64,000 bases of DNA from a virus. Location: IMG/VR virus record IMGVR_UViG_3300045988_115635, positions 41,405 through 105,404 of that record; one strand, 5' to 3'. Position 1 is the first letter of the stretch; each line of letters begins with the position of its first letter. The notes under the pieces are model-generated. The model made no database searches. It was not told the DNA's origin and saw only the letters and a program-made list of their open reading frames with translations. A program made the translations under genes and the position numbers. Of the stretch, positions 13,001 to 27,987 are shown in pieces.

Positions 13001-13883
13001 TAATCAAATACGTAAAGTCAAAAGCTTCTTCTTGATGATTTACCAAAGACTGCGTAGGTGCTTCACGTCTTTCATTTGGTGATACCCACAAATTAAGATC
13101 ATCGTCTACGTCATATTCCCAGTCTGGTCTACCAGTTACATAACGCTTTACCTGCCAAAGGTTAGAAGATGATTCTACCCCTCTCGGTTCTACCGTTACA
13201 TCTTCTTTGGTTTCAAGAATAAGCTTATCGAAAAATTCATCACGCTGTACGACAGTCATTATCGCGTCTTGCGGTCTGATATTTTTGGTTACTTTATTGA
13301 TGTTATAACGGTCTGCTTCAGTAACTTCAGCATCATCTACTACAACAATGTATTCGTTGTAATTTGCTTGTTCGTAGTAACCAGGCGTTAAAGCTGCCTG
13401 GTCCCCATCAGCCACATTTACGCCCTCGTAAAATTTCCAAGCTTCTAATACATTGCAAGGTTTAGCACACGCGCTTTCTGCTGCTAATTGGATACCGTAA
13501 GCGGTACCACCATACTGAAAAGCAAGCATGTATTTATAAATACGCGCCCTATACATTGAGTCTTTTGCTTCTACCTCATCCATCTGCTCACCCGTGAGCA
13601 AATTAGACTTAGGGTTATAAGAATAGCTTTCAGATTCTAAACGTCTAAAGCCAAAAGCGCGCCCGTATAATTCGTCTAAGTCCCCATAGTGAGTTTCTTC
13701 AAGGTTAGTTTGTAGACGTTTGAGCATGAGTTGGTTTCTAGCAGCACCAGCCCCAGCACCGCCACAGACAGCGTCCATGATTCTCACCATGTGACTTGAT
13801 CTGTCTTTACTATATATTTCTTCTGGTAAGCCTGATAAATAGACTTCCCTGTTAGTTGGTCTTAGCTTGTTTACGCTACCCAT
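10011..13883 (-). CDS. Large baseplate/tail structural protein (1290 aa)
   Basis: Uninterrupted 3.9 kb ORF directly downstream of the baseplate J-like gene. Aromatic/Asp-rich composition typical of fibre or baseplate-peripheral proteins. Confidence 0.45.
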   Translation of the reverse strand: MGSVNKLRPTNREVYLSGLPEEIYSKDRSSHMVRIMDAVCGGAGAGAARNQLMLKRLQTNLEETHYGDLDELYGRAFGFRRLESESYSYNPKSNLLTGEQMDEVEAKDSMYRARIYKYMLAFQYGGTAYGIQLAAESACAKPCNVLEAWKFYEGVNVADGDQAALTPGYYEQANYNEYIVVVDDAEVTEADRYNINKVTKNIRPQDAIMTVVQRDEFFDKLILETKEDVTVEPRGVESSSNLWQVKRYVTGRPDWEYDVDDDLNLWVSPNERREAPTQSLVNHQEEAFDFTYLINDVSASSEHIGNFDVRHSGAFYYLDMDNRTDLQKAANAVSDVSSKLYSASYFGSDGMADWSYPIDYTPLVNEKFNEQARSSRMWSSDEAYPDDKPTEWFEVRLDKGIPVNKLTFDISKKPVEIIPYVLLSDTEETWERITNEYGTQLSYTCRTWSGASTTGDMFSVSFKFNLAQAYGFRLVFNRLDVPYYKTLSDGALKEQDFPYSIDMSNFALHYDIKRKEDYVDATFEDPFGNKVETEFYERNEECLLDADSSTFWCSQPNTLQESVEYLIFDLRDGDGNAQRVNNMTISAVWGGCQMNVYSTEDSDPATASWKPYPSVYTLQSVKYSLPLRKVKFIKLEFTTLSSIPYTVIDDDISVFERDYPYEIKHYFDNQPASTYSMELYRQLLSTQDTPIYENNLGVYDTIGTSNIYQQIEQKRTIADTISQTNNPLYLPILVTPDSWRFTDNGAIASILGDSMRYENQLPSSARPPVSGTVLNMRFYEEGQHEYKIQQNMRSNDLAYVVAIKDISFGISGVRAIIEPDSEFVAFVADESVVEKNTGFELTNDERMVPTMELMNSLEFINLNSVIAFKTFDFAVNQREPREVFDYPSDMIQEWGAMNSEVESTEFGVSGTVLHANLSSGDSGISSESKLVRSQSIASIQVDVFSVEPRTWYLQCLDLSEEEVFNTKYEVEGGKWVTIGNTFTPQVGGMWWSNAYDYRVRIPIDGFVPAGTTVFVPNIDFDTLRNQSTPMVREDLKDFRCIYYNGVQCQEIDCDITDNMEVWFRIQDDIPEGASADGYYDYDINAFVGAYYFYFGYANESREPMRDYHAVFKPVELPCYEMTEHDPSGSITYETGKGAHIANADAWLEMSTAFRIDAGAGFITFEYTPDTDLDKVPEGQRGTASERYILDYQDETRRLSVYTYEQQLYVVIQEPDGFLNSFITHADFNEGVKSFVLIQWSAQGERSIYQTPTQIDAENKRGRNMEVWIDGTECENIDNIYNTRTYNNGTY

Positions 13884-13886
13884 CTA

Positions 13887-15878
13887 CTACCACCCTTGCT
13901 GTGTACGTCCGTAGAATTGTACGTATTGAACGTCAAAGCACTCATCGCTTCTTAATTTAAAGTCATTAGTAAATTGAGCCGTTTGAGTTTCACCATCTCG
14001 TGCATACTCAACAATACCGAAAGCACCGAAAGAACCTGCTCCTTGTGCAATGCTACCAGCAGCATCAGATTCTTTAGATACTCTTACGTTATCAACACCT
14101 GCAACGTTAGCCGCTACAGTCTCAATGTCTGAAAATTGGATTGTATAGCCAAAAGGTAAGGCGTTCGCCCAAGTAATAATAGCTTCTTCTACTGCTTGCA
14201 TAATAGAATCGCGTGTATAGACGCTAAACATTAAAGTAAGGTAAATGCCAAACCTTCTACGCTTTACCTCGTGTACCAATGTATTAGCGGTAACAACAGA
14301 TTGTTTGTCTACGAGTTCCTGAACTTCTTCTGGTACTGTGTTATAAACGAACGGGATATTCAAAGGCGTTTCGTTAGTCAAACTGATATTAGTACCATCA
14401 GGCGTGAAGGTATTCTTTTCACCTGAATAGCTACCGATAAGTTCTACAGCGTCCATCGCTCGTGAACTTCCGTCTCGCTTTTCGTAGCCAGAATCATAAA
14501 GCATCTTAAAATGTTTACCTTCTTGCAAAATAATATCAGCACCAACATTTATCATGCCGTTATAGCTTTCTAGTACGGGCTGATAAGAAAGCGGGATATA
14601 TAAGTTATTTTCAGTTGGCAAACTTCCATCATCATGCGTCCAATTGCTTTTGTTTGCAGCAGTAATACGCTTGTTAAAGTCAATAAACTGTAAGTCAGAT
14701 ACTGTCTGCCCTGATTGACCATCGACAAATACCTCTACGGTCTTAATACCTCCACGATTGATATTTGATAAATAGTCATATTCGATTGTAATAAAATCAC
14801 CGATGTTCGCTGCTTTATAGGTGTAAGTAACTAATACGGTTTGACCTACATAGTCAGTAGGAAAATCAGAATCAACGGATATTTTATTTCCTGATACTGT
14901 GTAGCCATCGGTAATAGGAACAACGCCGTCATTAGAAGTAATGCTAGAAACGCTTAAAACGTTATTTTTAGACAATTCATAAGAATTACCTCTAGCAATA
15001 GGTCCGATTAATTCTGTCGTTGATACGTCATGAAAACTAATTGATGCGTTATCAGCATCAACGTTATATTCACCTCTCGTAAAGAGTTCGTCAGTATCAG
15101 CGTTTCGAACCCAAAAGCGGTTTGTCGTGTCTAGCATTTCAGCAACTTCATCGGTGCTAAATGTAGCCGTGTAGTTAGATTGTACGTTTACAGTTTCAGA
15201 CCAGGTGCTTTCTTGCCCTACTACTGACGCTCTACTATTTGCAGTGTGAGCCAAAGCCAAACCTAAATACTGGTCCTCTGTACCAAACTCACCTCTAAAG
15301 ACCGTATTTACAAATCTTTGTCTTAGTTCTTCATCGGTTTCAACGTCTCTGCCGCCTGTCATTGGTAGAGAGTTAGTAACGGAAAAATAACCTTGATAAG
15401 AAACGGTATAAGTGACAGTATTAGCCGCTACATTTGCAGCACTACCCGCCAAAGTTGCCACTACTGGTATTTCCACCTTAGTAACACCTTTAGCCATTTC
15501 CTGATATGAGGTAGTTTGAAAATATACTGCGTCTTGTGTAGAAGTAGCAGGCTTATAAAATTGGCTGCCATATGCGATTGTCTGAATACTATCAGCGTTA
15601 TCTCTCGTAATAGTGATAGTACCTGACGCGCTTTGTGCCTGCTGCCTTGCAAAACCAAACATGCCCACAAAAGAATCTAATTCTTCACCTGAATATGCGT
15701 CAATCGAATACAAGGTATCAGTTGTGTTTTGGTCTGCTACAAGCGTTGCTAATTCTGACGCAAAAGCAGTAATCATTTTGCGAATAGGAGTACCAAGTTG
15801 CGTAGATAACTGCGGGTCTGTAATTGCAAGCTGATTTATGATTGATTGCTCAAATTGTGCCTGTGTCGTACTAGCCAT
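13887..15878 (-). CDS. Baseplate wedge protein (J/gp6-like by position)
   Basis: 663-aa ORF immediately following the gp25-like gene, the conserved gp25 then J order of contractile-tail phages. No motif verified. Confidence 0.4.
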   Translation of the reverse strand: MASTTQAQFEQSIINQLAITDPQLSTQLGTPIRKMITAFASELATLVADQNTTDTLYSIDAYSGEELDSFVGMFGFARQQAQSASGTITITRDNADSIQTIAYGSQFYKPATSTQDAVYFQTTSYQEMAKGVTKVEIPVVATLAGSAANVAANTVTYTVSYQGYFSVTNSLPMTGGRDVETDEELRQRFVNTVFRGEFGTEDQYLGLALAHTANSRASVVGQESTWSETVNVQSNYTATFSTDEVAEMLDTTNRFWVRNADTDELFTRGEYNVDADNASISFHDVSTTELIGPIARGNSYELSKNNVLSVSSITSNDGVVPITDGYTVSGNKISVDSDFPTDYVGQTVLVTYTYKAANIGDFITIEYDYLSNINRGGIKTVEVFVDGQSGQTVSDLQFIDFNKRITAANKSNWTHDDGSLPTENNLYIPLSYQPVLESYNGMINVGADIILQEGKHFKMLYDSGYEKRDGSSRAMDAVELIGSYSGEKNTFTPDGTNISLTNETPLNIPFVYNTVPEEVQELVDKQSVVTANTLVHEVKRRRFGIYLTLMFSVYTRDSIMQAVEEAIITWANALPFGYTIQFSDIETVAANVAGVDNVRVSKESDAAGSIAQGAGSFGAFGIVEYARDGETQTAQFTNDFKLRSDECFDVQYVQFYGRTQQGW

Positions 15879-15892
15879 GTATGATCTCCTAC

Positions 15893-16330
15893 TTAAATAG
15901 TCTGTTCTACGGTTACTTCTGTATCAGCAGCCGTACTTAGACTAACAATAACTCTAACGTCTGTTTCGGTTTGACTTACGTTTATGCTTGAAATAGAAGT
16001 TACAATGTCGTAATCGGTCCAACATTGCAAAAATTCCTCATTGCTCATTGATTGCTTATCTTGTGCAATTCTTTCGTTTTGAGCAGCAATGTAGTTATTT
16101 ACAACTCGCGTAACTTCAGTACGTATAGCCATTAAGTTATCTTCAAAAGCAGGTGCGCCAATATAAGTCCAAAGATCAGCACCGAATTTAGGATATACGG
16201 GGTCGGTTCCTAATGGTTCTAATAGCCACAAAGCTAATTCTTGCTTTATTCGCTCTGTGCCTTCCACCATAACGATTTTCCCGTCTCCACCCACGGAAAT
16301 ATCACCATCTATAACACGCATGCATTTCAT
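15893..16330 (-). CDS. Baseplate wedge protein, gp25/GpW family
   Basis: IKQELALWLLEPLGTDPVYPKFGADLWTYIG matches the GPW_gp25 signature (…P.FG..l…l). 145 aa. Confidence 0.6.
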   Translation of the reverse strand: MKCMRVIDGDISVGGDGKIVMVEGTERIKQELALWLLEPLGTDPVYPKFGADLWTYIGAPAFEDNLMAIRTEVTRVVNNYIAAQNERIAQDKQSMSNEEFLQCWTDYDIVTSISSINVSQTETDVRVIVSLSTAADTEVTVEQTI

Positions 16331-16333
16331 GTA

Positions 16334-16378
16334 TTGCCCTGCTTTCTTTCGTCTGGTTTTATTTTAGCAGCAGGGCAA
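16334..16378 (-). other. 10-bp-stem hairpin that abuts the gp25-like start codon and would sequester its ribosome-binding region
   Basis: TTGCCCTGCT (16334-16343) pairs with AGCAGGGCAA (16369-16378), with a 25-nt loop. No U-run, so it is not a canonical terminator. Confidence 0.3.
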
Positions 16379-16401
16379 ATATAAAGACACTTAGAACAAG
16401 G

Positions 16402-18300
16402 CTATGATTCTCTTGATATTGAGTATAGAAATAGTTCGCTTGCTAACTCTCCAAACATACTTTCTTTTTCAATATCCATAGCCATATAAACATGTCTGTC
16501 TTTAATCATAATAGGTGCTTGTACTTCGATATTAATAGCACCGTCACTGCTCTGTGTTTGATCATAACCTGTAGCTATCGTATTGTTTAATGCTGTAGCG
16601 TACCCTGTAACACCAAGGTCAATATAAAAGGACCTATCATGATCTTCAATATAGCCTGCTTTTACCGTGAGAGAGTAAATATACTCTCGTGTCTCTGTAG
16701 CGCTTTCTCCAAATAAATCTAAAAATGGATATGTTCTAGTGCTAGTAGTATCATCGACTAAATAGCCACATCGACCAATTAAGCAAAGATAACGCCCACC
16801 ATCATTTACTATATTTGTAACTGCGTTTATAGTATCGTCTGTCATATTAGACACCATAAACAAGCAAGTAGCAGCGTTACGATTATATTTTTCTTCTAGG
16901 CTCAAATCATCATCAAATAAGATGCGTAGCCTATGGCTAGTTTTATCAACAATTAGTGATGCCATTGAGTACCATGATTCCATATAGTCAATGTTTGCTT
17001 CGCTTTGCCAGTGACTAGCGTTTAATGATTGCATGGACAAAACTAAGCCATCATAGTCGCTGTTATTTACATTAGTAATTCTATATTTATCCATTGCGCG
17101 CCAAAGTTCTTCTGTAACTTCATCAGATAAAACTTTGTAATCATCATAATCACCAACAATAACTTGATTTGCTCCATATTTAGCAAGGATAGAAAACATG
17201 CCATAAGGCTGTGTAATATCTGGTACAGATAAATCAAAAATAGGCTTACATTGCTCACCTAAGCGGCAACAGATAGCTACGCATGCTTCAAAACTTCTTA
17301 ATTCACTTTGGGGGTCTGCACTGTGTTGATAAGCAATAGGCATACCAGCATAAGACCAGCCATAGCCGCCGAAACTAGAATCAATACCACTTCTTGCATA
17401 CCCTAAGCCGTCAGAATCTACTAGACAATATGCATAATCAGGAACGATAGCTATTAAGCCTGTAATGCCTATCTTATCCTTGATAGCTTGACACAATAAA
17501 CGTTGTTCTTGTGATAAAAATTCACGCCATAATAAATAATTATCATCAATGCCGTTTACTATATAATTATCGCTAGGCATGATTCTATTTTGAGAATAAA
17601 AGTTTTTATCAGCTATAGGATTTCTGTCATATGCAAGACCAGCTAGACCGATACCATCTAAGCAATAGCTTGTGATGTCGCTACCATACTTCAATCTAAG
17701 TTCATCTATTAAAGCTACGATAGCGTCTTTTGCTCCACTTGCAGACCACTTACGCGAACGTACACCTGTGTTGGTCTGTTGCTGGTAGGTAGCAAAATCA
17801 TCATTGGTTGTGTCGCTCCAAATTTCAGATGATAAAGCTACGGTAACAGCAACATTGTTGTTTCTAAATCTGTCTAATAGCTGCTTTAAAATTGGTTGAC
17901 TTTTAAGACCGTAATTTTCACAAATATCACTGTCCCAGTAAACAAAACCATTATCAGCTACTGTTAATAAGACCTCATCAAAACCAGCAGATACAATATC
18001 ATCTACTACTGCTCGCTCTTTGCCTATACAACGCGATGCGTTAAGCCTGATAACGTAACGCATTACATTGATATTTCCATTTGTGACTTTATTCCATAAA
18101 CGCCACTTGTTAGAAGCTACCTTAGAGATAAGCCAAACTTCATTTACCTTTGGAGGGGTTTCCGTATTGGATAAGTCAAAATTTATAGTAAGCGTACCTG
18201 CTTGTGTTTTGCAGGTGATGCCGTTTGAACCTACATTTACGATTTGTACGACCTGCATTTGGTCGCCGCTAAGACCTCTATCCATTGTTATTTCTCCCAA
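16402..18300 (-). CDS. Baseplate-associated protein (632 aa)
   Basis: ORF between the tail-lysin block and the gp25-like gene. Confidence 0.4.
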   Translation of the reverse strand: MGEITMDRGLSGDQMQVVQIVNVGSNGITCKTQAGTLTINFDLSNTETPPKVNEVWLISKVASNKWRLWNKVTNGNINVMRYVIRLNASRCIGKERAVVDDIVSAGFDEVLLTVADNGFVYWDSDICENYGLKSQPILKQLLDRFRNNNVAVTVALSSEIWSDTTNDDFATYQQQTNTGVRSRKWSASGAKDAIVALIDELRLKYGSDITSYCLDGIGLAGLAYDRNPIADKNFYSQNRIMPSDNYIVNGIDDNYLLWREFLSQEQRLLCQAIKDKIGITGLIAIVPDYAYCLVDSDGLGYARSGIDSSFGGYGWSYAGMPIAYQHSADPQSELRSFEACVAICCRLGEQCKPIFDLSVPDITQPYGMFSILAKYGANQVIVGDYDDYKVLSDEVTEELWRAMDKYRITNVNNSDYDGLVLSMQSLNASHWQSEANIDYMESWYSMASLIVDKTSHRLRILFDDDLSLEEKYNRNAATCLFMVSNMTDDTINAVTNIVNDGGRYLCLIGRCGYLVDDTTSTRTYPFLDLFGESATETREYIYSLTVKAGYIEDHDRSFYIDLGVTGYATALNNTIATGYDQTQSSDGAINIEVQAPIMIKDRHVYMAMDIEKESMFGELASELFLYSISRES

Positions 18301-19703
18301 GAAACCATACCAGGAAAACGTGTATCCCCTGCTTTACATTGAGGGCATAAAAGGCTTACAGACGTTGAATAGCCACCTGCACCTGGTCCGCCGCTATGTT
18401 GAACACCTGTTACATAACCAGACAAACCTAAACTTTTGACCTTAATTCTCATGCCGGGCCATATATTAGGCATCCATGTTATCTGAATTGTCATTTTGTA
18501 CTGATTTGCCCAGTTTGTCATAAATTCATACAAGGCATAAAGAAACGGCAAAATATATTGAGGATTGCTCTCTGAACCACCTGCGTTTTCTCCACCTGCT
18601 GCTGTGTCTCCACTTGGTGATTCAATTACGTGTTGTAATTGCTTCTTAGCAGGTCTAGCACCATAGCGTCTATATAGCTCTCTAGGAGTAAATCTCCACT
18701 CTTCACCCTCGGGAATGTTAATAAGTTTCTTTAATAAAGCACTAGGTTCATCAGAAATGCTATCTTCACCAATTTCAGATAAAGCAGACGAAGCAGAAGC
18801 AGCTAGGTTACTTTCAATAGATACAACGCCTTGTGTCAACGCCCATTGCATATCTGATGTTTGCCCACTACTGCCTAAATACTGTCCGCCTACGTTTACA
18901 CCTGCGCAAAATTGATGTGAAACGAATGTATCTTCTGATTGAGTAATCTTTAAGTCTATAAGTTCAATATCATCTAATAGCAAACAAGGAGTATTACCAG
19001 ATACGCCCCAGTAATCAGGATACCAAGCCATAAAGCTACCATCTGGACCAGCCATAACGGTACGCATAGAAGAATTAAAAATATCTTTGATTGTATTCCA
19101 CACGGGTTCATCGTTTGCTAAAGCGCGTTCACCTACTAAAACCTGTGAAGCCGCACTATTCATCACATTACCGAAAGAAGATGCAAAGAACCAAGCCGTA
19201 GAAGCTAGTGAGCCTGAACTTGATGATGTATCAGTACCGCCTTGTGCTTGTGCTTCTTCTACACTTGTAGCATCACCGCCGTACTGAATATCAGTAATGC
19301 CATCTTTCGACTGAACAAATCTAGGGGTTATAAACATAAAACTGTCATTGTCAGTAGTGTTTACTGATAGACAATTTTCATTAGCTAAGTCTTTTAAGTC
19401 TCCTAGTTTGCCACTGTCTGATAGGGTAAATTCCCAAGCAATACCCCAGCCAAAATAATGGATATATTTCAAAAATTTATCATTGCCGTTGTTTGCCCAA
19501 TTTTGAGCAGTCTCTTTCTTAACACGACCAGAATAGCCAAGGTTTACGGTAATACCATTATCTTTTTCGACCTTGCCAACAAACTCACGTACAGCGTTTT
19601 TAAAAGCACCCTGTAAGCCGTCTTGCCCCTCGCCTGTAGTCGTGCTTGTGTCTACGCCAGCATATTTATCATCGTCTGTAGGAACAAAGTATTTTCCTAA
19701 CAT
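18288..19703 (-). CDS. Baseplate/tail protein (471 aa)
   Basis: ORF overlap-coupled to the upstream tail-lysin paralog. Confidence 0.4.
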   Translation of the reverse strand: MLGKYFVPTDDDKYAGVDTSTTTGEGQDGLQGAFKNAVREFVGKVEKDNGITVNLGYSGRVKKETAQNWANNGNDKFLKYIHYFGWGIAWEFTLSDSGKLGDLKDLANENCLSVNTTDNDSFMFITPRFVQSKDGITDIQYGGDATSVEEAQAQGGTDTSSSSGSLASTAWFFASSFGNVMNSAASQVLVGERALANDEPVWNTIKDIFNSSMRTVMAGPDGSFMAWYPDYWGVSGNTPCLLLDDIELIDLKITQSEDTFVSHQFCAGVNVGGQYLGSSGQTSDMQWALTQGVVSIESNLAASASSALSEIGEDSISDEPSALLKKLINIPEGEEWRFTPRELYRRYGARPAKKQLQHVIESPSGDTAAGGENAGGSESNPQYILPFLYALYEFMTNWANQYKMTIQITWMPNIWPGMRIKVKSLGLSGYVTGVQHSGGPGAGGYSTSVSLLCPQCKAGDTRFPGMVSWEK

Positions 19704-20836
19704 TAAGAACCTCCAAATTGTGAGAATGCCGCCTGTGCATAAGCAACACGCTGTTCCATTCTTGGAATAGAAGCGCGTGTATATACTCGTTCAAAGGCTT
19801 CTGTTGCCCAAGGAATATCGGTTAATGCTTTGAATTGGTCAAAGGTCATTTTTTCAGCAATCCACGCTTGCGCGCCACTAGGATAGGTATATACGCCGTG
19901 TCCTGTATAAGCATCAAATTGGCTAGGTGCTTCTTGTACAAAGTATAGTAGCTGTGATTGAATATCTGTCCAATCTGCACCTCTTTGTGATGCGAACTGA
20001 CAAAGCGAATTGAAACGGTCTGAACCAACTTCCCATTGAAGTAAGCCACGACCAGGACCGCCGCCGCTCTGACACTTTGCAGGGTCAACACCTGATTCTT
20101 GTTGCATATTGCCAATAACGCCAGCAGCAGCTTGTTTTGTAAAACCTTGCGACAAACAAAAATTCCAAACGATTTCTGCGTTGGTATTTCCTGAAAAATC
20201 AGCAGCACCCGCAACACCTGAAGCAGCAGTACCGATTTTCGGTCCTGATGTTTGAAGCATTTCGTAAATATTGTTAACAAGGTCTGCACCCTGTGTATCT
20301 TCAAGCCTTACTTGGTACATATCAGTTGCCCACTGAATAACTTCATCGGGTATTTGACCAATAGATATTTTATTTGCGGGCCAATTAGCTACTGCCTGTA
20401 AAAGTCTTACGCCTTTTTTCCAATAGCCACCATCTTGGCTTGTATTATCTTGCTGCGAGAATACTAACCAATAAGAATCTTCTAGGTTGGGGTCCCAGTA
20501 CAGCCTTTGAAGCCTAAATAGAACATCTCTGCCTGTGATAGTAACCTCGCCTGCATTCAAATTAAAGTAAGGTACTGTTTGAATATATCCTGCCAACACT
20601 TGATATTTTTCGCTTTTTGTCAACCAAATAGCTATTTTATCCATAGGCGAGAATACACCCATGTACTTGTTCTTTTCATTTTTCAAAGTAATAGAAAAGT
20701 CTGAACTATCATCTGTTTTAAGGTTAATTGAAAAACGAACAATATCATCTGATACGTCATAGGCTTTAGTAGAACCATTGCTAACTGTGCCTATTTGAGC
20801 GTGAATCATTGGCGTATATGTAAGTATCTTAGTCAT
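19703..20836 (-). CDS. Tail-associated lysin, paralog 1: conserved ~205-aa N-terminal domain plus a C-terminal lysozyme-like (phage-tail-lysozyme/muramidase-type) domain
   Basis: N-terminus MTKILTYTPM… is shared with two other genes. The C-terminus carries AAAGVIGNMQQESG…GRGLLQWE, the signature of phage tail lysozyme-like domains. Confidence 0.55.
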   Translation of the reverse strand: MTKILTYTPMIHAQIGTVSNGSTKAYDVSDDIVRFSINLKTDDSSDFSITLKNEKNKYMGVFSPMDKIAIWLTKSEKYQVLAGYIQTVPYFNLNAGEVTITGRDVLFRLQRLYWDPNLEDSYWLVFSQQDNTSQDGGYWKKGVRLLQAVANWPANKISIGQIPDEVIQWATDMYQVRLEDTQGADLVNNIYEMLQTSGPKIGTAASGVAGAADFSGNTNAEIVWNFCLSQGFTKQAAAGVIGNMQQESGVDPAKCQSGGGPGRGLLQWEVGSDRFNSLCQFASQRGADWTDIQSQLLYFVQEAPSQFDAYTGHGVYTYPSGAQAWIAEKMTFDQFKALTDIPWATEAFERVYTRASIPRMEQRVAYAQAAFSQFGGS

Positions 20837-20849
20837 GCTTATATTTTAG

Positions 20850-21611
20850 CTAGAACTGTTTCCATACGCTAATAAAATAGCACCAAGAACCTTGTGCTCT
20901 TAATTCTTGTTCGCTCCATACTCTCGTATTTTCATGTGATGCTGGGTCATTGATTCTTAAATTACCGTCAGAATCTAACCACATTAAAACTAAGTGACCG
21001 CCGTAATAAACTGCTCCAAATTGACCAGCCACGCTACACCATACAGTGTGCCCCGCCTTAGCTTCATTTATTGCAAAATCTAGGTCCCACATTTGATTTG
21101 AAGCCTGTAGCCCTAAAGAATTTCTAGCAAAATCAGCAAAAGCAAGCATATAGTTTAAACCGCCATAGGTACAGCTATCTCCTACAGTATCCCTTAGCCT
21201 TAAAGGTGTAAACTCTTCGCGTGTCCAATACTCAAAAGACATTGCAGCGGTAGTTAATCCGCAACCATTTGAACCTATCGTGTTGCCATGTGCGTAACTA
21301 ACGCCGCTCCATCTCTCATCACCTTGATAATATGCTGGCATGTATCTAGGGTCGTGTTGGTCGTGCCATTCTTCCATTGCCTTTTGATAGGTAGGCTCAA
21401 TACATGAATAAGTATCGTTCATAAACGCTGCTAGACTATCAGCAATAGGCTCTAAAGTAGGTCTAGCTAAAGTAGCCTTTTGTTGGTCTAAAGTTAATTT
21501 TCTATCATCGACAGATGTATTCACGATTGCCGAAAACAGAATAATAGCGGTAATAAATAAGACCAGAAATAGATAAAGAATCTTCTTTAATATGTTGATA
21601 AACTTCTTCAC
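20850..21611 (-). CDS. Peptidase C39-like (papain-fold) cysteine peptidase with an N-terminal signal peptide / TM anchor
   Basis: N-terminus KKILYLFLVLFITAIILFSAIV is hydrophobic. Catalytic Cys in GSNGCGLTTAAMSFEYW and His in GGHLVLMW fit the Peptidase_C39_2 layout. Confidence 0.5.
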   Translation of the reverse strand: MKKFINILKKILYLFLVLFITAIILFSAIVNTSVDDRKLTLDQQKATLARPTLEPIADSLAAFMNDTYSCIEPTYQKAMEEWHDQHDPRYMPAYYQGDERWSGVSYAHGNTIGSNGCGLTTAAMSFEYWTREEFTPLRLRDTVGDSCTYGGLNYMLAFADFARNSLGLQASNQMWDLDFAINEAKAGHTVWCSVAGQFGAVYYGGHLVLMWLDSDGNLRINDPASHENTRVWSEQELRAQGSWCYFISVWKQF

Positions 21612-21651
21612 CTATTTAATGTTAGGCTTATATATTTTTACCGCTACCTAC

Positions 21652-22728
21652 TTAAACACCCGTAAATCTAAAGTAGTGCGTCCAACCGCCTGAAATGTTT
21701 ACTACAGAAACCTCTGTTCCTGTCTGGTCACCTGCTTGCGGGTTTCCTCGTGAAGAGTGAGCACCCGCTGTTTGTCCGCCACCTATGTACCATTCTGTGT
21801 GTCCACTTCTCCACATAATATCCCCACGTTGCAAGGAGTTAACATCGTTGTTATAGGGGTATTTGGTCCAACCACACCCAGGTAATTGAGAATCCATAGA
21901 GTAGGTTGTAAAAGCGTAAGAGCCTAATTGATCTTGTGTCCAACCATTGTTGAGCAGCGAGTAATAGACAAGTGACGAACAGTCATAGTCAGGATTGCCT
22001 GTACGATTTGCCTGTGAATAGCCATGAGAATCATCATTGCATATGTTGATTGCCCACTGTACAGCCGCTTCAACTGCTTCTGATGATGCTGTACCTGTAA
22101 AGCCTGTCGTTCCTGTTGTACCAATTTGAGGACCAGACGTTTTTAGCATTTCATAAATCTGATTTACTAAATCCGCGCCTTGTGTATCCTCTAATTTTGT
22201 TTGATACATTTGCACGGCCCACTCAACAACATCTTCTGGCATTTGACCAATAGATATTTTGTTGGGGTCCCAATTTGCTACTGTTGTTAAAACATTTACA
22301 CCCGAACGCCAGTATTCCTCATTGCTAGTCCACAGTGAAGAATCATTCATCAGTAATAATTGTGATGATACTAAACCGCTATCCCAGTAAAGAGCGTTTA
22401 ATCTGTATAGGGTGCATTTGCCCTGTATGTTAAAGTCGCTGCCATATAAGGACCAAAAATCACATGTAGTTATATAGCCTGCAAATACAGGTGTTTCATC
22501 TGACTTTACTAGACTAATTACAATTCTATCCATAGGCGTGAAAACGCCATTATATTTTGACTTCTTATTTTGAAGTGAGATTGAAAAGGTTGAGCAAGCA
22601 TCAGTGTTTAGGTTAATCCTAAAGTTCGTAATATCATCTGAAAGATCATAGACTTTATCGTTTCCGTCTGACTGTCTACAAGCAACCTTTGCTTTTATCA
22701 TAGGTGTATATGTAAGAATCTTTGTCAT
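21652..22728 (-). CDS. Tail-associated lysin, paralog 2: conserved N-terminal domain plus a C-terminal NlpC/P60 endopeptidase domain
   Basis: N-terminus MTKILTYTPM…. The C-terminus has YDCSSLVYYSL (catalytic Cys) and GDIMWRSGHTEWYIG (catalytic His), as in NlpC/P60. Confidence 0.55.
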   Translation of the reverse strand: MTKILTYTPMIKAKVACRQSDGNDKVYDLSDDITNFRINLNTDACSTFSISLQNKKSKYNGVFTPMDRIVISLVKSDETPVFAGYITTCDFWSLYGSDFNIQGKCTLYRLNALYWDSGLVSSQLLLMNDSSLWTSNEEYWRSGVNVLTTVANWDPNKISIGQMPEDVVEWAVQMYQTKLEDTQGADLVNQIYEMLKTSGPQIGTTGTTGFTGTASSEAVEAAVQWAINICNDDSHGYSQANRTGNPDYDCSSLVYYSLLNNGWTQDQLGSYAFTTYSMDSQLPGCGWTKYPYNNDVNSLQRGDIMWRSGHTEWYIGGGQTAGAHSSRGNPQAGDQTGTEVSVVNISGGWTHYFRFTGV

Positions 22729-23813
22729 GGTAATAGACCTGGCTTACATGGATAGTTTTGATCAAAAATAACGCCGCCATGCCAACCCCACCCCGTACCT
22801 TGCGGTACTCGCTTATTACCAGCGTTGACCCAATCCATCAACGCCCATTCTTTTACATAGCCGATATTATCCATGACGGTATTGTTGCCTACATAAATAC
22901 CAACGTGTCCGTACACATTGTCGGGGTTTCCTCCACTATTCCAACCATAGCCATAGACACAACAACCAGGAATAACTTTAGTCCAATCAGTAGACGCTCC
23001 GTATTGCCTTGCTGCTTCTCTTGCGCTTGCTGGTCGAGCGTTAGAAACGCCTGCTTTTTCAAATACGTCAGATACCCATTTTTGGCAATAACCACCTTGC
23101 GCGGTAATGCCGTACTTTTCAGAATTTTTAGCTACCTCAATAATTTTCTTTTGTGCTTCTGAAACATCACCGTTAAAAACATCACCTGACGTTTGCCCTG
23201 TATTGCCTACATTTGGTCCTGACGTTTGGAGCATTTGATAAATCTCATTTACTAAGTCTGCTCCTTGGGTATCAGCTAAACGCACGTTGTACATCTGCAT
23301 TGCCCACTGAATTACCTCTGTAGGTAATTGACCTATAGATATTTTATCAGCAGACCAATTACATACAGCAGATAAGATATTTACCGCTGCTCTCCAATAG
23401 CCGCCATCTTGGTCGGTAGATTCCGCGCTTTGAAAAGTAACTAACTCTCTACTAGACAATAAGCCACTATCCCAATAAAGAGACTGCAAGCGATATAAAA
23501 CGTCTTTGCCTGTAATGGTTACAGGACCGCTATATAAAGTAAAGGTAGGGCAAGTAGTGATATAACCAGAAAATACTTGATATTTCTCACTTTTAGTTAA
23601 CCAAATTACTATAGCGTCCATAGGCGTGAAAACACCGTTGTATTTATTGTCATTGTTTTGAAGCGTGATTGAAAAAGTCGAGCAGCCATCTGTATTAAGA
23701 GATACAGAAAAATTGGTAATATCATCTGAAAGATCATAGTATTTGTAGCCCGTTTGCTGTCTTGCCCTTACGGTAGCATGAACCATAGGGGTATAGGTTA
23801 AGATTTTCGTCAT
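22725..23813 (-). CDS. Tail-associated lysin, paralog 3: conserved N-terminal domain plus a C-terminal CHAP-like amidase/endopeptidase domain
   Basis: N-terminus MTKILTYTPM…. The C-terminus has GGYCQKWVSDVF (Cys) and NVYGHVGIYVG (His), a CHAP-like arrangement. ATGA overlap with paralog 2. Confidence 0.55.
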   Translation of the reverse strand: MTKILTYTPMVHATVRARQQTGYKYYDLSDDITNFSVSLNTDGCSTFSITLQNNDNKYNGVFTPMDAIVIWLTKSEKYQVFSGYITTCPTFTLYSGPVTITGKDVLYRLQSLYWDSGLLSSRELVTFQSAESTDQDGGYWRAAVNILSAVCNWSADKISIGQLPTEVIQWAMQMYNVRLADTQGADLVNEIYQMLQTSGPNVGNTGQTSGDVFNGDVSEAQKKIIEVAKNSEKYGITAQGGYCQKWVSDVFEKAGVSNARPASAREAARQYGASTDWTKVIPGCCVYGYGWNSGGNPDNVYGHVGIYVGNNTVMDNIGYVKEWALMDWVNAGNKRVPQGTGWGWHGGVIFDQNYPCKPGLLP

Positions 23814-24316
23814 AACAAATCTCCCCTAAAGGCTGCATCACCTTGGGCAACAATATCTTCAGTATCTACTTTGTTTGCGGGAATATCAGAAACGCCACCT
23901 GTTACGGTACTTTCGTTTCCTGCCTCCCCTGTCTCGTCTTTTAGAATTACGCATCTATAAGAATTCTGATAAGCAGAATCACTATATTTAATATCAACAG
24001 GAAAAGAAGTGATAGCAATAGTGAATACTTTGCTAATTACAGGAATAGACAAAACCATATGTGAAGGTTTTGCCATTGAAGTAAGGTATTTATGATATTC
24101 AGCTATCCACTCTGAAAAACTTAAATAATCATCACGTGATAAAAACGCCAAGCCTAATGTAATATCGGTTTTTCTTACATTTCTAGGGTAAGCAGTTTGA
24201 TTTTGGCGTGCTTGTGATTGACTGGTCATATTTAATACCAATCCATAGCTAAAATCTTCTACAATCACGCTTTTGCTTTTACCGTTGTATGTAAGAGTAC
24301 CGTTATATAAAGGCAT
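23810..24316 (-). CDS. Tail protein (168 aa)
   Basis: ORF between the tape measure and the lysin block. Confidence 0.4.
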   Translation of the reverse strand: MPLYNGTLTYNGKSKSVIVEDFSYGLVLNMTSQSQARQNQTAYPRNVRKTDITLGLAFLSRDDYLSFSEWIAEYHKYLTSMAKPSHMVLSIPVISKVFTIAITSFPVDIKYSDSAYQNSYRCVILKDETGEAGNESTVTGGVSDIPANKVDTEDIVAQGDAAFRGDLL

Positions 24317-24318
24317 GA

Positions 24319-25062
24319 CTAACTTCTTTTCATGTTATTCACTGTTGAGTTGGCAACGTCAGAAATAACACTTCCTGCTTGCTGCCAAATGGCATTTACG
24401 ATTGATGAAGTACCGCCGTCAGAACTTACTTGAACAGTACCATCATCTTCAGTAGTATCCGCTGCTTCATTTTCTTCAATAGCTTGCAATTGATCATATA
24501 AACTTACGCCGTAAGCATCGTATGAACCAGAATTTTCTACTACCTGCTTTAATGCTTGTAAGGTATTTTCCCAGTTATCTTGATCAGGGGTGTTATAGAT
24601 GTTTCTAGTCCAACCTACACCATCTTGAATAGCGTTTAGTGCATCTGTAGTAGCTGCTTCTTGGATAGTTGAAAAACCAGTGTCTACAAACATAGTAAGC
24701 TGATATGAAATAGCTGAAACCCTTGGGTTGTAGGACAGATTAGAAACATTCTTTAAAAATACTTTGCCGTCCCAGCCTAAGATAGGAAAATAAAAACGAA
24801 CGCTTTCGTTATTGGCTACGTGATAATCCATGATAGATTGCATCTGACGTTCGAATTCTTTCATACGGTCGTATCGTGTTGCATTAGTAAGACCTTTTGA
24901 AGATAAATACCCTGTAATAGTCAAGTCTCCAATGTTGCGAGAAAGAATCTGAACAACCGTACCACCATAAGTCTCAATCTTGTTAGTATTTAACTCATAA
25001 GACCATTTAGCGGTAGACGGGTCTATATCAAATAAATATCCTCCTAAAGAAGCCGTAGCCAT
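24319..25062 (-). CDS. Tail protein (247 aa), distal-tail/baseplate-assembly candidate
   Basis: ORF immediately downstream of the tape measure gene with a 1-nt overlap. Confidence 0.4.
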   Translation of the reverse strand: MATASLGGYLFDIDPSTAKWSYELNTNKIETYGGTVVQILSRNIGDLTITGYLSSKGLTNATRYDRMKEFERQMQSIMDYHVANNESVRFYFPILGWDGKVFLKNVSNLSYNPRVSAISYQLTMFVDTGFSTIQEAATTDALNAIQDGVGWTRNIYNTPDQDNWENTLQALKQVVENSGSYDAYGVSLYDQLQAIEENEAADTTEDDGTVQVSSDGGTSSIVNAIWQQAGSVISDVANSTVNNMKRS

Positions 25063-27251
25063 TATAATTCACCGTCCGATTGTAGCTGCTCTTTACCGTC
25101 CATAGCTTTGAGATAGAACATCTTAGAAGCATCTTCAGAAAATTGAATTTCGTACTTAGTCTTTTCGCCCTCTTCATTTCTGGTTGCATTACTGAACCAG
25201 TCCTGATCTTTGGTATCCCAAGTGAAGTCATTTTCGAGCCATGAAGATGCGGTTTGAGGATTGCCCCAAATATCTTTTCCGTAAGTATTGTAGGACCACG
25301 AAACATCATTGAACATTTCGTTAATGTCCTCATTAGTCATTGTGTTAATCTGATCTTCTGACACCTCGCCAGACAAAGCCATAGACTGTAAAAATACAGC
25401 TTTTTCATCTTCTGATAATTCGTCATAGCTTTTACCCAAAATGCTTTGAAGTACAGCAGAACCACGTTCACCGTTCATATCAAGACCAGATACATAGTTG
25501 CTCATGCCACTACGATAAATAGCACCGCTATCGGTAGTTACCATACTGCCCTCTGTGCTACCACCTAATGACTTAGCAGTATCTAATAATTGAGTAGTGT
25601 TTACAGGGTTTGCTGCTTCTACCGCTGCTCGGTTTACGTCATTTACTAATGGGTCGGATAAAAAGTCGAACAAATCTTCTGGGCTATCCTGGCTTACAGG
25701 AATAGCTTCACCGCCATAAAATACCTTAGACAATTCTTGCATAATAGAATTGTGGTTACGGTAAATGTTCTGATCTTCATTCCATAGACGAACGAATTCG
25801 TCTTTGTCACCATTTAATACAGCTTGAATTAAAGGACCTGCTGCTGTGCCTTGGTTTGAATAATAATCAGCATATTCACCGATTGCATAAGCGTAGGCTT
25901 GACCAGTATCCATGCCGTTGTTCTGCGCTTGCAACAATGCATTTTGAAAATAAACATCGTTTTGAGCATACTTAGCTACGCTATTAGCAACCTTTGAAGA
26001 ATCTCCTGTTTCATCTCCAAAATAGCGCGTAAAATCTACTGCAATATCTTGACCAGTAAGAACAGAACCTGTTTGCTGTTCAAAGGTATTACTAAAGGTT
26101 TGATATTGCTGCTGTACAGCAGACATAGAAGCACCTGTATTTTCTGCTACCTCTGCCAAAGAATCTAACTTTTCGTTAAGGTCGTCTACGGTAAGACCAC
26201 CGCGAACAACACTATCAATATACATTTGGGTTGCGTCTTTTACTGACAAACCTCTATTTTGATTTGCGCTTACAACCCAGTCATAACCCTGTGTATAAGA
26301 ATCGCTACCATAGGTAGCACCGCCACTCATTAAGCCGCTTTGAATTTGCTGAATTTCATTCTCGCTTAGGCTTGTTGTGAATTCGGTTAATTTAGATTGC
26401 AAACCTTGTTCAATGCCTACATTCAAGTTGCTACCGCTACCAGTAGCTTCAAGCGATGCAGAACGCAAGTTCTGAAACATATCAACGCCGCTACCAAATA
26501 GGTTAATACCAGCAGCCCCAGCACCTAAAGCAGCACCGATAGGACCTAAAAAGCTTAATGCCCCGCCTGCTTTTGATAAAATGCCACCAAGTGAAGAAAT
26601 ACCTCGTGTACCTTGCATGCTTAACGTATCAATTACAGCTGATGCCGTTTGAACATAGTCTGTTACATTGTTGGCTCCACTTTGGAAAGATTGAGCAGCA
26701 GAAGGTGTAGCAGCGTCATATGATTGCACCAATTTATCAAAAGAATCTTGCTGCGAGGTTGCAGATGATTGACGTACAACACTGTCGTACATCTTGTTGT
26801 AAAAGTTATCATCGCGTTCTTGCAGCTGTTTAGCTTGTTCTTGCCTATCTTCATCAAGCTTGCTTAAAAATTCTTCTACCTTTTGATTTCTTTGTTCTTG
26901 CTCTTCAATAATCTTCTTTTGAAGTTCGGAAAAAGATTCGCTTACCTTTTTAGATTCCTCTGTTTGCTCTTTAATAGATTCGCTAAGTTCAGGAGAATCT
27001 ACGGTAATAGTTGCACCCGTGCCATTACTGTCGGTGCTCACCTGTCCGCCGTTATCTTTAATTTCATCTATATAGTCTCTAAATACACCAATTTGCTTGG
27101 TCATTTTAGAGACTTCTTCAACTAGAGAATTTGCAGCTTCAGAAACGACATCTTTGGAAGCGTCTGCGCGTTGAACCAATTCACCCATACGCTGCGCAAC
27201 ATCAGAACTTGACGTTACTTGTTTTCTCACAGTGTTATCATCGGTAGGCAT
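25062..27251 (-). CDS. Tail tape measure protein
   Basis: 729 aa. N-terminal coiled-coil (EE/QQ/KK-rich), a Gly/Ala-rich hydrophobic segment (GPIGAALGAGAAGINLFGSG), and a position directly after the chaperone pair. Confidence 0.65.
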   Translation of the reverse strand: MPTDDNTVRKQVTSSSDVAQRMGELVQRADASKDVVSEAANSLVEEVSKMTKQIGVFRDYIDEIKDNGGQVSTDSNGTGATITVDSPELSESIKEQTEESKKVSESFSELQKKIIEEQEQRNQKVEEFLSKLDEDRQEQAKQLQERDDNFYNKMYDSVVRQSSATSQQDSFDKLVQSYDAATPSAAQSFQSGANNVTDYVQTASAVIDTLSMQGTRGISSLGGILSKAGGALSFLGPIGAALGAGAAGINLFGSGVDMFQNLRSASLEATGSGSNLNVGIEQGLQSKLTEFTTSLSENEIQQIQSGLMSGGATYGSDSYTQGYDWVVSANQNRGLSVKDATQMYIDSVVRGGLTVDDLNEKLDSLAEVAENTGASMSAVQQQYQTFSNTFEQQTGSVLTGQDIAVDFTRYFGDETGDSSKVANSVAKYAQNDVYFQNALLQAQNNGMDTGQAYAYAIGEYADYYSNQGTAAGPLIQAVLNGDKDEFVRLWNEDQNIYRNHNSIMQELSKVFYGGEAIPVSQDSPEDLFDFLSDPLVNDVNRAAVEAANPVNTTQLLDTAKSLGGSTEGSMVTTDSGAIYRSGMSNYVSGLDMNGERGSAVLQSILGKSYDELSEDEKAVFLQSMALSGEVSEDQINTMTNEDINEMFNDVSWSYNTYGKDIWGNPQTASSWLENDFTWDTKDQDWFSNATRNEEGEKTKYEIQFSEDASKMFYLKAMDGKEQLQSDGEL

Positions 27252-27583
27252 TACAGACCTTCTTCTTCCATCATCTGAATAAGACCTTCCATTGTGTCAG
27301 CGGTGATTTCTACGTCATTTCTCTTATCTATTTTACGCAATTCCCTTTGTTGCGTAATATATCTAAATGCTTCTGGCTTGGTAAACGCCAACCAAAAGTC
27401 TTTGTTATCCTCTAGCTTCTTTCTCTCACGTTTTGTTTCTACTTCATTTGCTATAAACAAACATGTAGACTGAACGTAATTTAAGTCTCCCTGTAATATA
27501 CCCGCTAATTTTGCCCGTTGAATCAGGGATAAAACGTATTTCACATTTTGCGGTAACTCTGAATAATCTTCACAGTCTATCAA
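27251..27583 (-). CDS. Tail assembly chaperone, -1 frame portion (T part of a G/GT-like pair)
   Basis: Its reading frame is the -1 frame relative to the upstream chaperone ORF and stays open back to the A7 slippery site (manual translation IKSLLIDCEDYSELPQNVKY). Confidence 0.5.
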   Translation of the reverse strand: MIDCEDYSELPQNVKYVLSLIQRAKLAGILQGDLNYVQSTCLFIANEVETKRERKKLEDNKDFWLAFTKPEAFRYITQQRELRKIDKRNDVEITADTMEGLIQMMEEEGL

Positions 27584-27591
27584 CAGGCTAT

Positions 27592-27987
27592 TTATTTTTT
27601 TAAGCTAGAAGCAATCTCACCAGCCGTTTTCACCATCTTGGTATATTCATCATAAATGTCTCTTACTACAGATGCGTACCAATCTTTAATTACTTGCGCC
27701 TTTTCATAAATCAAATCAACATCGGGTGATAATGCCTTTACCAAAGGCATTCCATCAACCGCTTCTATTGCAGCAGCAACAAAATACATTTGCATAGCAG
27801 CTAACTCACTTCGAGTACCTACATACTCTTTTGCTAGTTGCCCTACTCTTAATTCTTCACCTTGCGTAAGCGTCTTAATTAAGATTTTATGCCCTGCAAT
27901 TTCAATAGTCCTTTGAAGCTTTCCAACGTAGAGCAGCCCTGAAAAGGGCTGCTTATACTCATCGGGAAAAACATCTTCTTTGTTCAT
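27592..27987 (-). CDS. Tail assembly chaperone (G-like, 131 aa)
   Basis: Sits between the tube and tape measure genes and ends in a slippery A7 run. Ribosome-binding site GAGAGGGAA before the ATG. Confidence 0.5.
   Translation of the reverse strand: MNKEDVFPDEYKQPFSGLLYVGKLQRTIEIAGHKILIKTLTQGEELRVGQLAKEYVGTRSELAAMQMYFVAAAIEAVDGMPLVKALSPDVDLIYEKAQVIKDWYASVVRDIYDEYTKMVKTAGEIASSLKK
27595..27601 (-). other. Candidate -1 programmed ribosomal frameshift site (A_AAA_AAA) at the end of the first chaperone ORF
   Basis: Minus-strand sequence AGC TTA AAA AAA TAA: an A7 heptamer immediately before the stop codon. The -1 frame continues into the 27251..27583 ORF. Confidence 0.5.

Follow-up and report, generated by a model that had tools for sequence, protein, structure and literature searches.

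Three lysin-bearing front halves and one rear half encoded at a phage baseplate locus: evidence for a split, multi-copy tail hub

Can paralogues mix to make up a central part of a phage tail, one that sets its symmetry? The question is raised by a 64,000-nucleotide stretch of viral DNA (IMG/VR record IMGVR_UViG_3300045988_115635, positions 41,405 to 105,404; hereafter the window), in which an earlier note had described three tandem paralogues that share an N-terminal domain of ~205 residues and then diverge into different peptidoglycan-cleaving enzymes. The three open reading frames, here called A, B and C, lie as described (Table 1) and all begin with MTKILTYTPM. Residues 1–205 are pairwise 54–64% identical in protein and 62–66% in DNA, whereas the C-terminal parts share 17–22% protein identity, which is background and marks these domains as unrelated. 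A profile search with the N-terminal domain found exactly three copies in the window, each with an E-value of ~1e-123, far beyond chance. Among 50,697 phage records, none matched the region in a DNA search at near-identity. The genes do form one block, as claimed, but are not all adjacent, with a 253-residue C39-like gene separating B from C. The unit also extends beyond the paralogues, as gene D belongs to it and the C39-like gene probably does.

Table 1. Features of the hub block and its neighbours, in gene order (window positions).
Feature	Position	Strand	Remarks
Tape measure protein, 729 aa	25062..27251	-	named from position (after tail chaperone pair) and size only
247-aa gene	24319-25062	-	phrog_2786; between tape measure and paralogue A
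168-aa gene	23810-24316	-	between tape measure and paralogue A
Paralogue A, 362 aa	22725..23813	-	N-half + NlpC/P60-like hydrolase domain
A, hub N-half	aa 1-205 = 23199-23813	-	Gly/Thr linker next
A, NlpC/P60-like Cys/His hydrolase domain	aa ~215-362 = 22725-23171	-	Cys243, His303
Paralogue B, 358 aa	21652..22728	-	N-half + Amidase_5/ELLD papain-like peptidoglycan hydrolase
B, hub N-half	aa 1-206 = 22111-22728	-	
B, Amidase_5/ELLD domain	aa ~220-342	-	Cys250, His310
C39-like gene, 253 aa	20850..21611	-	sits between B and C
Paralogue C, 377 aa	19703..20836	-	N-half + Phage_lysozyme2
C, hub N-half	aa 1-205 = 20222-20836	-	
C, Phage_lysozyme2 domain, phi29 gp13-type	aa 219-374 = 19715-20182	-	Glu247
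Gene D, 471 aa	18288..19703	-	degenerate VanY-like domain + hub C-half; directly downstream of C
D, degenerate VanY/LAS-fold domain	aa ~1-145 = 19269-19703	-	zinc-ligand His -> Phe84
D, hub C-terminal half	aa ~185-460 = 18324-19151	-	
632-aa protein	16402-18300	-	without family match; central-spike position; downstream of D
145-aa gp25-like sheath initiator or baseplate protein	15893-16330	-	faint Sheath_initiator match on L093 orthologue
Baseplate_J wedge protein, 663 aa	13887-15878	-	Baseplate_J E 2.6e-23

The gene order (tape measure, 247 aa, 168 aa, A, B, C39-like, C, D, 632 aa, gp25-like, Baseplate_J) bears out the proposed placement between tape measure and wedge genes. This is the hub position, between tape measure/tube initiator and spike/sheath initiator/wedge genes. 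The order is common to Rhodococcus phage E3, Mycobacterium phage ScottMcG and all split loci described below, and the core gene order of diffocin and phage phi812 (PMC10996793, PMC13433997) matches it from tape measure to Baseplate_J. The tape measure call is backed by synteny with E3, ScottMcG and Eggerthella phage LE2-3, whose tape measure is annotated, and the genes downstream of D (13887..18300) gave the PHROG baseplate matches phrog_2669 and phrog_43. By position, the 247-aa and 168-aa proteins are candidate tube initiators or adaptors. Pfam, PHROG and NCBIfam held no match for the 168-aa protein, NCBIfam gave zero matches across all block genes, and sequence searches of the PDB with the 247-aa and 632-aa neighbours found nothing significant. 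A promoter and terminator scan detected no excess of terminator-like sites inside the block and is uninformative, because counts were no higher than in shuffled sequence. The locus is best explained as that of a contractile-tailed phage with Gram-positive hosts of the Eggerthella/Coriobacteriia type.

Family searches matched the C-terminal domains of A, B and C to three different peptidoglycan-hydrolase families; muralytic activity is predicted for each. The lysozyme-like domain attributed to C is a Phage_lysozyme2 domain (PF18013, 97.6 bits against a gathering cut-off of 28.2, E 9.4e-28) that matches the lysozyme domain of phi29 gp13 (PDB IDs: 3CSR and 3CSQ, E 5e-8). Although of the same enzymatic family, gp13 belongs to the tail knob of a podovirus, combines lysozyme and M23 domains and has no hub half. 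Glu247 of C aligns with gp13 Glu45, which we take to be the catalytic residue, and hence Glu247 is the putative catalytic glutamate. The labels first given to A (CHAP) and B (NlpC/P60) captured a papain-like Cys/His pair in each but were inexact. B matches Amidase_5 (PF05382, 32 bits against a cut-off of 21) and ELLD (PF25309, 40.8 bits against 27), with Cys250 within DYDCSS and His310 within SGHTEWY, and appears to be an Amidase_5-type amidase or peptidase. A scores below the Pfam gathering cut-off for NlpC/P60 (PF00877, 15.7 bits against 23; its LE2-3 orthologue, 21.6 bits); it has the fold and the catalytic Cys...His of the NlpC/P60–CHAP papain-like superfamily and is, by fold, an NlpC/P60-like endopeptidase. 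Sequence searches of the PDB with A and B returned nothing significant.

The C39-like protein has an N-terminal transmembrane helix (aa ~10–31) and a Peptidase_C39_2 domain (PF13529, 33.4 bits against a cut-off of 24, E 8e-8; Cys117, His206), and judged by its sequence probably serves as an accessory wall peptidase. The gene is kept between paralogues 2 and 3 in LE2-3 and in loci L003 and L093, and in locus L006 a C39-like plus M23 module is fused onto an N-half.

The shared domain had been taken for an anchoring module at the hub. The site holds; the domain itself, rather than being a generic anchor, makes up the N-terminal half of a split gp27/gp44/XkdQ-type baseplate hub. Nor is it a wall-binding module of lysis-cassette endolysins, the endolysin candidate of LE2-3 being a separate protein that lacks it. 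The hub assignment rests on fold and fused homologues, because sequence searches of the PDB gave no significant match (a profile of 28 N-half sequences found chance matches only). The models display the channel-forming hub-domain fold of gp27, Mu gp44 and XkdQ, and structural alignments show the two halves to be roughly complementary in length, e.g. 131 + 166 residues against the 325-residue gp44, in AF2 models of moderate confidence (mean pLDDT 74, with N-half residues 120–214 below 60). The other half resides in D, for which a single-sequence search of the PDB returned nothing significant, while the D profile matches residues 493–599 of the phi812 hub by sequence (E 0.02). Along PHROG 2810 (952 positions), A, B and C occupy positions 48–260/288 and D occupies 648–920. 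The N-terminal domain of D does not have the combination that defines VanY/LAS zinc peptidases, namely the fold together with the SxHxxGxAxD and ExxH motifs that bind zinc, and with its zinc ligands lost we rejected it as a fourth active lysin. In A, B and C the hydrolase is covalently attached to hub protein, each chain running hub N-half, linker, lysin domain, so that the lysin follows the N-half only.

Relatives carry both halves on one chain. E3 gp119 (806 aa) comprises an N-half (1–215), SLT_3, NlpC/P60 and a C-half (502–770), with BLASTP E-values of 4e-21 against A and 1e-31 against D, and ScottMcG gp132 (948 aa) has the same layout. These E3 and Bxz1-type proteins (PHROG 2810) are sequence homologues of the N-half (~30% identity) and of D's C-half (27%) and share neighbouring genes with the window phage. 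They are single fused genes of 800–950 aa in one copy, without published structure or function, and the genes of the window phage are their split, multi-copy derivative.

A census with the N-half profile against 1.84 billion representative proteins gave 718 clusters; the family comprises several hundred clusters at 50% identity from gut, freshwater and soil metagenomes, and the domain is always at residues ~1–205. Among the best 150 of the 718, D's C-half ends 58 of the 60 long proteins (≥640 aa) and none of the 75 shorter ones. The fused chains (E3, Mycobacterium Bxz1-type and these 58) span 650–1360 aa and hold their lysins between the hub halves (Pfam domain content read from 10 examples). 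D aligns end to end with the VanY plus C-half portion of one such fused protein, P0241; it is the back two-thirds of the fused form, and the fission accordingly falls between lysin 1 and lysin 2. The ancestral form thus appears to have been one chain: hub N-half, glycosidase, peptidase, hub C-half.

Enzyme-bearing hubs are known, each described case being one gene and a homotrimer; a split, multi-copy hub we have not found described, and no split or heteromeric hub came up in searches of the literature. Diffocin CD1368 (PDB ID: 8v3w; PMC10996793) is one homotrimeric chain with a complete hub (1–314) and then C-terminal hydrolases, whereas the fused relatives insert lysins between the halves and the window phage has its hub in two pieces, lysins after the N-half and the N-half gene triplicated. 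In Staphylococcus phage 812/K, gp110 (ORF56, the CHAP ‘cleaver’; PDB ID: 9euf; PMC13433997) is likewise a single homotrimeric chain with one C-terminal enzyme; its clamp and weld partners were not seen in the window phage. In the phiKZ atlas the wedges are reported as heterotrimers and some fibre proteins as paralogues that have an N-domain in common, yet the hub as a homotrimer. The Eggerthella phage PhiKL11 is an unrelated 44-kb siphovirus. In the window and in all gut-clade loci the N-half and C-half are separate genes, and the window has three of the former and one of the latter in place of a single-copy hub.

Copy number was compared across 21 complete split loci, a census drawn from a metagenome scan (an IMG/VR scan gave only 2 loci). 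Thirteen have three N-half genes and one C-half gene; the other combinations (N-half, C-half) are (2,1) in three loci, (1,1) in three, (2,2) in one and (2,3) in one. N-half copies number one to three, most often three, and neither half exceeds three. In the C-half tree (neighbour-joining, without support values) two large split clades are set apart by fused lineages, and the 3 + 1 arrangement is the commonest in both. From these sequences, the split loci appear to form at least two separate clades.

The N-halves resemble each other more within genomes than between them (58% against 40% identity, whatever the gene position; in the second split clade, 72% against 55%). By contrast, lysin domains at the same position in the window and in L003 are orthologues. 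The N-halves evolve in concert within each genome, and all copies are under purifying selection over long divergence. Recent gene conversion among A, B and C was rejected, synonymous codon identity being ~45–50% and the longest exact DNA match 24 nt; because synonymous sites are saturated, either the homogenisation is of old date or co-evolution, and not gene conversion, accounts for it.

The earlier suggestion that the paralogues are a substrate for domain shuffling is borne out by the near relative L093, in which the position-1 N-half is 82% identical, yet a lysozyme cassette replaces the NlpC/P60-like one. The breakpoint is the conserved junction at the N-half end, DTQGADLVNxIYEMLQTSGP, which is likely to be both a docking element and the recombination point for lysin cassette exchange. 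Paralogues of one genome usually bear different lysins, but a strict rule of three different chemistries was rejected, since L093 carries two lysozyme cassettes.

We consider it probable that these genes encode a split modular hub, in which lysin-bearing N-halves, drawn from a common pool, take the three slots by docking on a D trimer. An ancestral single gene would have been broken between its two lysins, with D retaining the inactive VanY-like domain and the hub C-half, and the N-half gene would have become triplicate, each copy ending in a different peptidoglycan hydrolase. Three D and three N-half subunits would rebuild a trimeric, pseudo-sixfold hub ring at the tail tube's tip. A, B and C would all be present in virions and co-assemble with D, displaying several wall-cutting chemistries on flexible Gly/Ser/Thr linkers. 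After sheath contraction, the enzymes would digest the thick peptidoglycan locally ahead of the tube.

A special case of this model is an ordered heterotrimer, in which every hub combines a single A, a single B and a single C on the D trimer. Three copies are both the modal and the maximal number, the 3 + 1 arrangement recurs in two clades set apart by fused lineages, the lysins within a genome usually differ, and the tight packing with start/stop overlaps (4 nt between B start and A stop, 1 nt between C stop and D start) fits similar expression. However, the N-halves are homogenised per genome without position-specific conservation across genomes, the opposite of what an ordered ring would lead one to expect. 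In phi812 the gp27-type ring alternates N-side and C-side barrels (PMC13433997); by analogy, the N-halves would mostly touch D and not each other, leaving little to enforce order. Loci of the (1,1), (2,1), (2,2) and (2,3) types work without one of each, so three different N-halves are not obligatory, and L093 has its two lysozyme-bearing copies. The three-copy ceiling fits a heterotrimer, while concerted N-halves and loci with one or two N-half or two to three C-half genes fit interchangeable slots at least as well. We consider it less likely than not that the hub is an obligate hetero-oligomer of three D with one each of A, B and C, arising convergently in at least two clades after independent fissions. 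If it is, the tail tip would lack threefold symmetry, with three different wall-cutting enzymes at fixed stations, and among gp27-type hubs none is known before it that consists of half-proteins and departs from that symmetry.

Each virion might instead carry three copies of one paralogue, giving a mixed burst that hedges against variation in host walls. The known hub-lysin proteins, CD1368 and gp110, are all homotrimers, and interchangeable N-halves would permit homotypic assembly, but nothing in the sequence would keep the three from mixing if they are produced jointly from a single gene block, and the three-copy ceiling is left without a reason; we regard this as unlikely. It is very improbable that only one paralogue is structural and the others are decoys or soluble lysins (for lysis or lysis from without) whose shared domain oligomerises or binds the wall: a scan of 1–10 kb of the window turned up no endolysin, and the enzyme families matched in the block, phrog_998 and phrog_3861 among them, occur in endolysins too, but the shared domain has the hub fold, is always N-terminal, always lies inside the baseplate block and is joined covalently to the C-half in most long homologues examined, every copy is under purifying selection, and LE2-3 has a separate endolysin candidate (GH25, SH3-like, LysM) without it.

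For a split hub with shared slots, the nearest functional analogue may be the ‘evolved’ VgrG paralogues of type VI secretion. VgrG1, VgrG2 and VgrG3 of V. cholerae, for example, share a gp27/gp5-type hub-spike core and differ in the effector domain at the C-terminus, in one case a peptidoglycan hydrolase, and such paralogues can mix in one trimer, so that one firing carries several effectors. They differ in being full-length, unsplit hubs fused to the spike, encoded by scattered genes, with effectors that hit target cells and do not serve phage entry, and have no sequence relationship to the window hub.

Enzyme-bearing hubs, as in diffocin and phage 812, are an only recently recognised route of contractile machines through thick Gram-positive walls. 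Here the front hub half would serve as a cartridge carrier that can be exchanged, no genome having more than three versions of it, which poses the question of a mixed-paralogue tail part with which we began. A cultured counterpart with the same layout is at hand in Eggerthella phage LE2-3, on E. lenta DSM 2243, and the conserved junction may lend itself as a natural place to splice when tail-tip lysins, or tailocins, are engineered to attack gut Actinobacteria.

On the minus strand of the window the tail genes form one unbroken block, within which the three open reading frames A, B and C (362, 358 and 377 residues) are present at exactly the coordinates assigned by the earlier note, each beginning MTKILTYTPM. 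The common N-terminal domain proposed for them was borne out by pairwise comparison, residues 1–205 being 54–64% identical in protein and 62–66% in DNA, as was the divergence beyond it, where the last 150–170 residues are 17–22% identical and so unrelated. A profile of the shared domain found three copies in the 64-kb window, namely A, B and C. The same block includes two genes that the earlier note had omitted, one for a 253-residue protein and one, D, for a protein of 471 residues.

Coordinates of features in the window and in loci of related phages
Feature	Sequence	Position	Strand	Remark
A	window	22725–23813	−	
B	window	21652–22728	−	
253-aa protein	window	20850–21611	−	between B and C
C	window	19703–20836	−	
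D	window	18288–19703	−	start overlaps C stop
N-terminal domain of D	window	19269–19703	−	degenerate VanY/LAS fold
632-aa protein	window	16402–18300	−	directly after D, central-spike position
131-aa and 110-aa ORFs	window	27251–27987	−	between tube and tape measure genes
Small-gene run	LE2-3 (L001)	11245–15237		between paralogue 2 and C39-like gene
Small-gene run	L003	5794–7565		between paralogue 2 and C39-like gene
GIY-YIG/NUMOD3 gene	L003	13985–14746		flanks Baseplate_J
NUMOD4/HNH_3 gene	L003	16810–17535		flanks Baseplate_J
Three tandem C-half copies	L064	6439–10978		
Two C-half copies	L072	6269–9151		
LE23_35	LE2-3 (L092)	15531–16700		far from tail genes

From homology and structural models, we concluded that A, B and C carry the front half of a gp27-type baseplate hub (N-half) and D the rear half (C-half). 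One PHROG profile, phrog_2810 (952 positions), is matched by A, B and C at 48–260/288 and by D at 648–920. At this position the closest cultured relatives beyond the immediate group have a single protein: gp119 of Rhodococcus phage E3 (806 aa) comprises, in order, the N-domain (1–215), an SLT_3 lysozyme domain, an NlpC/P60 domain and the C-domain (502–770), with homology to A (4e-21) and D (1e-31), and gp132 of Mycobacterium phage ScottMcG (948 aa) has the same layout. The fused actinophage proteins of PHROG 2810 are annotated as structural or minor tail proteins, nothing more. The N-domain profile, run against 1.84 billion representative proteins, hit 718 clusters, in all of which the domain is N-terminal. 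The best 150 of these fall into two size classes; among them, the C-terminal region of D ends 58 of 60 proteins of at least 640 aa and none of 75 proteins of 300–640 aa. Long-form examples run from the N-half through a glycosidase (SLT, SLT_3 or glucosaminidase) and a peptidase (VanY, M15_4, CHAP or NlpC/P60) to the C-half, and the D profile aligns end to end with the part of one of them, P0241, that spans VanY and the C-terminus (probability 100, E 5.6e-54). A further fused homologue, P0283 (1155 aa), has a LAGLIDADG_3 domain (residues 684–734), suggestive of an intein or homing endonuclease, between its two lysin domains.

In the model of A, the confident N-terminal part (residues 8–115) matches lysin-free baseplate hub proteins; the models had a mean pLDDT of 74, prediction was poor for the helical part of the N-half (residues 120–214), and the N-half had no significant match among PDB sequences. 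The gene order (tape measure, two small proteins, the A–D block, a 632-residue protein, a gp25-like protein and Baseplate_J) agrees with the baseplate cores of diffocin and Staphylococcus phage 812 (PMC10996793, PMC13433997). The 632-residue protein found no match in Pfam, PHROGs, NCBIfam or PDB sequences; its counterparts of 627–674 aa are conserved in all gut-clade loci. Upstream, the ORFs of 131 and 110 residues (the latter with TTG as its listed start) resemble the customary tail-chaperone pair made by programmed frameshifting.

That the three paralogues end in different chemistries, as the earlier note held, is right in kind, but A is better described as NlpC/P60-like than as CHAP, and B as Amidase_5 than as NlpC/P60. 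C has a clear Phage_lysozyme2 domain (Pfam, E 9.4e-28); in the PDB it matches the lysozyme domain of gp13, a tail protein of phi29, and Glu247 of C falls opposite Glu45 of gp13 in the alignment. B scores above the Pfam cut-offs for both Amidase_5 and ELLD and has a Cys250/His310 pair. Across 75 split-form representatives the Pfam families were NlpC/P60 (17), ELLD (9), Phage_lysozyme2 (8), Amidase_5 (7), CHAP (6), M23 (3), and SLT, Peptidase_C92 and C39-like (1 each), in a tally where some proteins count under more than one family and many match none. The 253-residue protein combines a Peptidase_C39_2-like Cys/His domain with a strongly hydrophobic N-terminal transmembrane helix, and occupies the same spot in the related loci LE2-3, L003 and L093; in L006, a C39-like and an M23 module are instead fused to the hub N-half. 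It would be a membrane-anchored peptidase encoded within a baseplate block. In the VanY-like domain of D, Phe84 replaces a zinc-ligand His and a YFGWGLAxE motif is kept in 56 homologues; the domain may be peptidoglycan-binding or a purely structural remnant. The D-type protein of L007 has an intact Amidase_2 domain in the slot of this dead fold.

Among cultured phages the closest is Eggerthella phage LE2-3, 112 kb long and infecting E. lenta; it too has all three paralogues, together with the C39-like gene and D. Nearly every long ORF of the window (1–64000) is on the minus strand, cumulative GC skew falls monotonically, and G+C is about 39%, much lower than in the E. lenta genome. In LE2-3 and L003 the inserted run of small genes includes several with Gp10_C-like domains and is absent from the window and L093; the two homing-endonuclease genes of L003 are likewise absent from the window. 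Homologues of D are common on metagenomic phage contigs of 100–160 kb. Both halves were counted with profiles in these contig contexts and in 79 metagenome loci, giving 21 complete split loci, which include a few near-duplicates so that the counts are not fully independent: 13 have three N-halves and one C-half, three have two and one, three have one and one, and single loci have two and two or two and three. Neither half ever exceeds three copies. The C-half is multiplied in two freshwater or soil loci, L064 and L072, each beside two N-half genes, so the rear half of the hub can diversify too, again within three copies. In a neighbour-joining C-half tree, built without support values, a split gut clade and a split freshwater/soil clade are separated by many fused lineages, and a third, single split is nested in a fused clade, which suggests more than one fission event. 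The three-to-one arrangement is the commonest in both large split clades.

The N-halves cluster by genome and not by gene position. Identity within a genome is 58% in the gut clade and 72% in the freshwater/soil clade, against 40% and 56% between genomes at the same position and 39% and 55% at other positions; position-wise orthology appears only between very closely related phages, as when the window is paired with LE2-3. For the lysin domains, by contrast, orthology follows position even between the window and the distant L003, at 36%, 60% and 52% identity and with gene order unchanged. The N-halves have thus been homogenised within genomes, or co-evolve with one common partner, whereas the lysins have not. 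Among A, B and C, synonymous sites approach saturation and no shared DNA word exceeds 24 nt, so homogenisation is not recent in this genome. Conservation among the paralogues peaks where the N-half ends, at DTQGADLVNxIYEMLQTSGP (80–90% amino-acid identity). In L093, whose D is 84% identical to that of the window, the first-position gene is 82% identical to the A N-half up to exactly this junction, past which comes a lysozyme cassette sharing 85% identity with the one in C, a direct case of cassettes being exchanged there.

On the reading that these data support best, a hub ring would be assembled from three copies of D and three N-half subunits taken from A, B and C, with the lysins suspended at the tail tip by flexible linkers. 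After contraction, the lysins would clear peptidoglycan in front of the advancing tube, the role put forward for diffocin CD1368 (PMC10996793); wall digestion by a phage 812 hub domain was shown by zymogram (PMC13433997). The three-copy ceiling fits the three hub slots. An ordered heterotrimer, its slots filled by one each of A, B and C, seems less likely than not, as the homogenised N-halves and the existence of loci with different copy numbers speak for interchangeable slots and, because the two barrel types alternate in gp27-type rings (PMC13433997), the N-halves would mainly contact D. It is unlikely that A, B and C are lysis enzymes, since the shared domain is a hub fold, is fused to the other half of the hub in most long homologues examined and lies always within the baseplate block, and LE2-3 has a separate endolysin candidate lacking it. 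This gene, LE23_35, encodes a likely endolysin with a GH25 domain, two SH3-like repeats and LysM; no homologue occurs within the 64-kb window, so the window phage's own endolysin is probably encoded outside it.

The proposed split hub differs from the known hydrolase-bearing hubs of T4 (gp27/gp5), diffocin, phage 812/K and cyanophage A-1(L), each a homotrimer of one gene product in which the enzyme follows a complete hub. No account of a split or multi-paralogue hub came up in the literature searched, which is absence of evidence within that literature only. The nearest known functional analogue comes from type VI secretion, whose 'evolved' VgrG paralogues have a common hub core and are able to mix in one trimer. 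With LE2-3 and E. lenta both in culture, the split hub can be put to a direct test.
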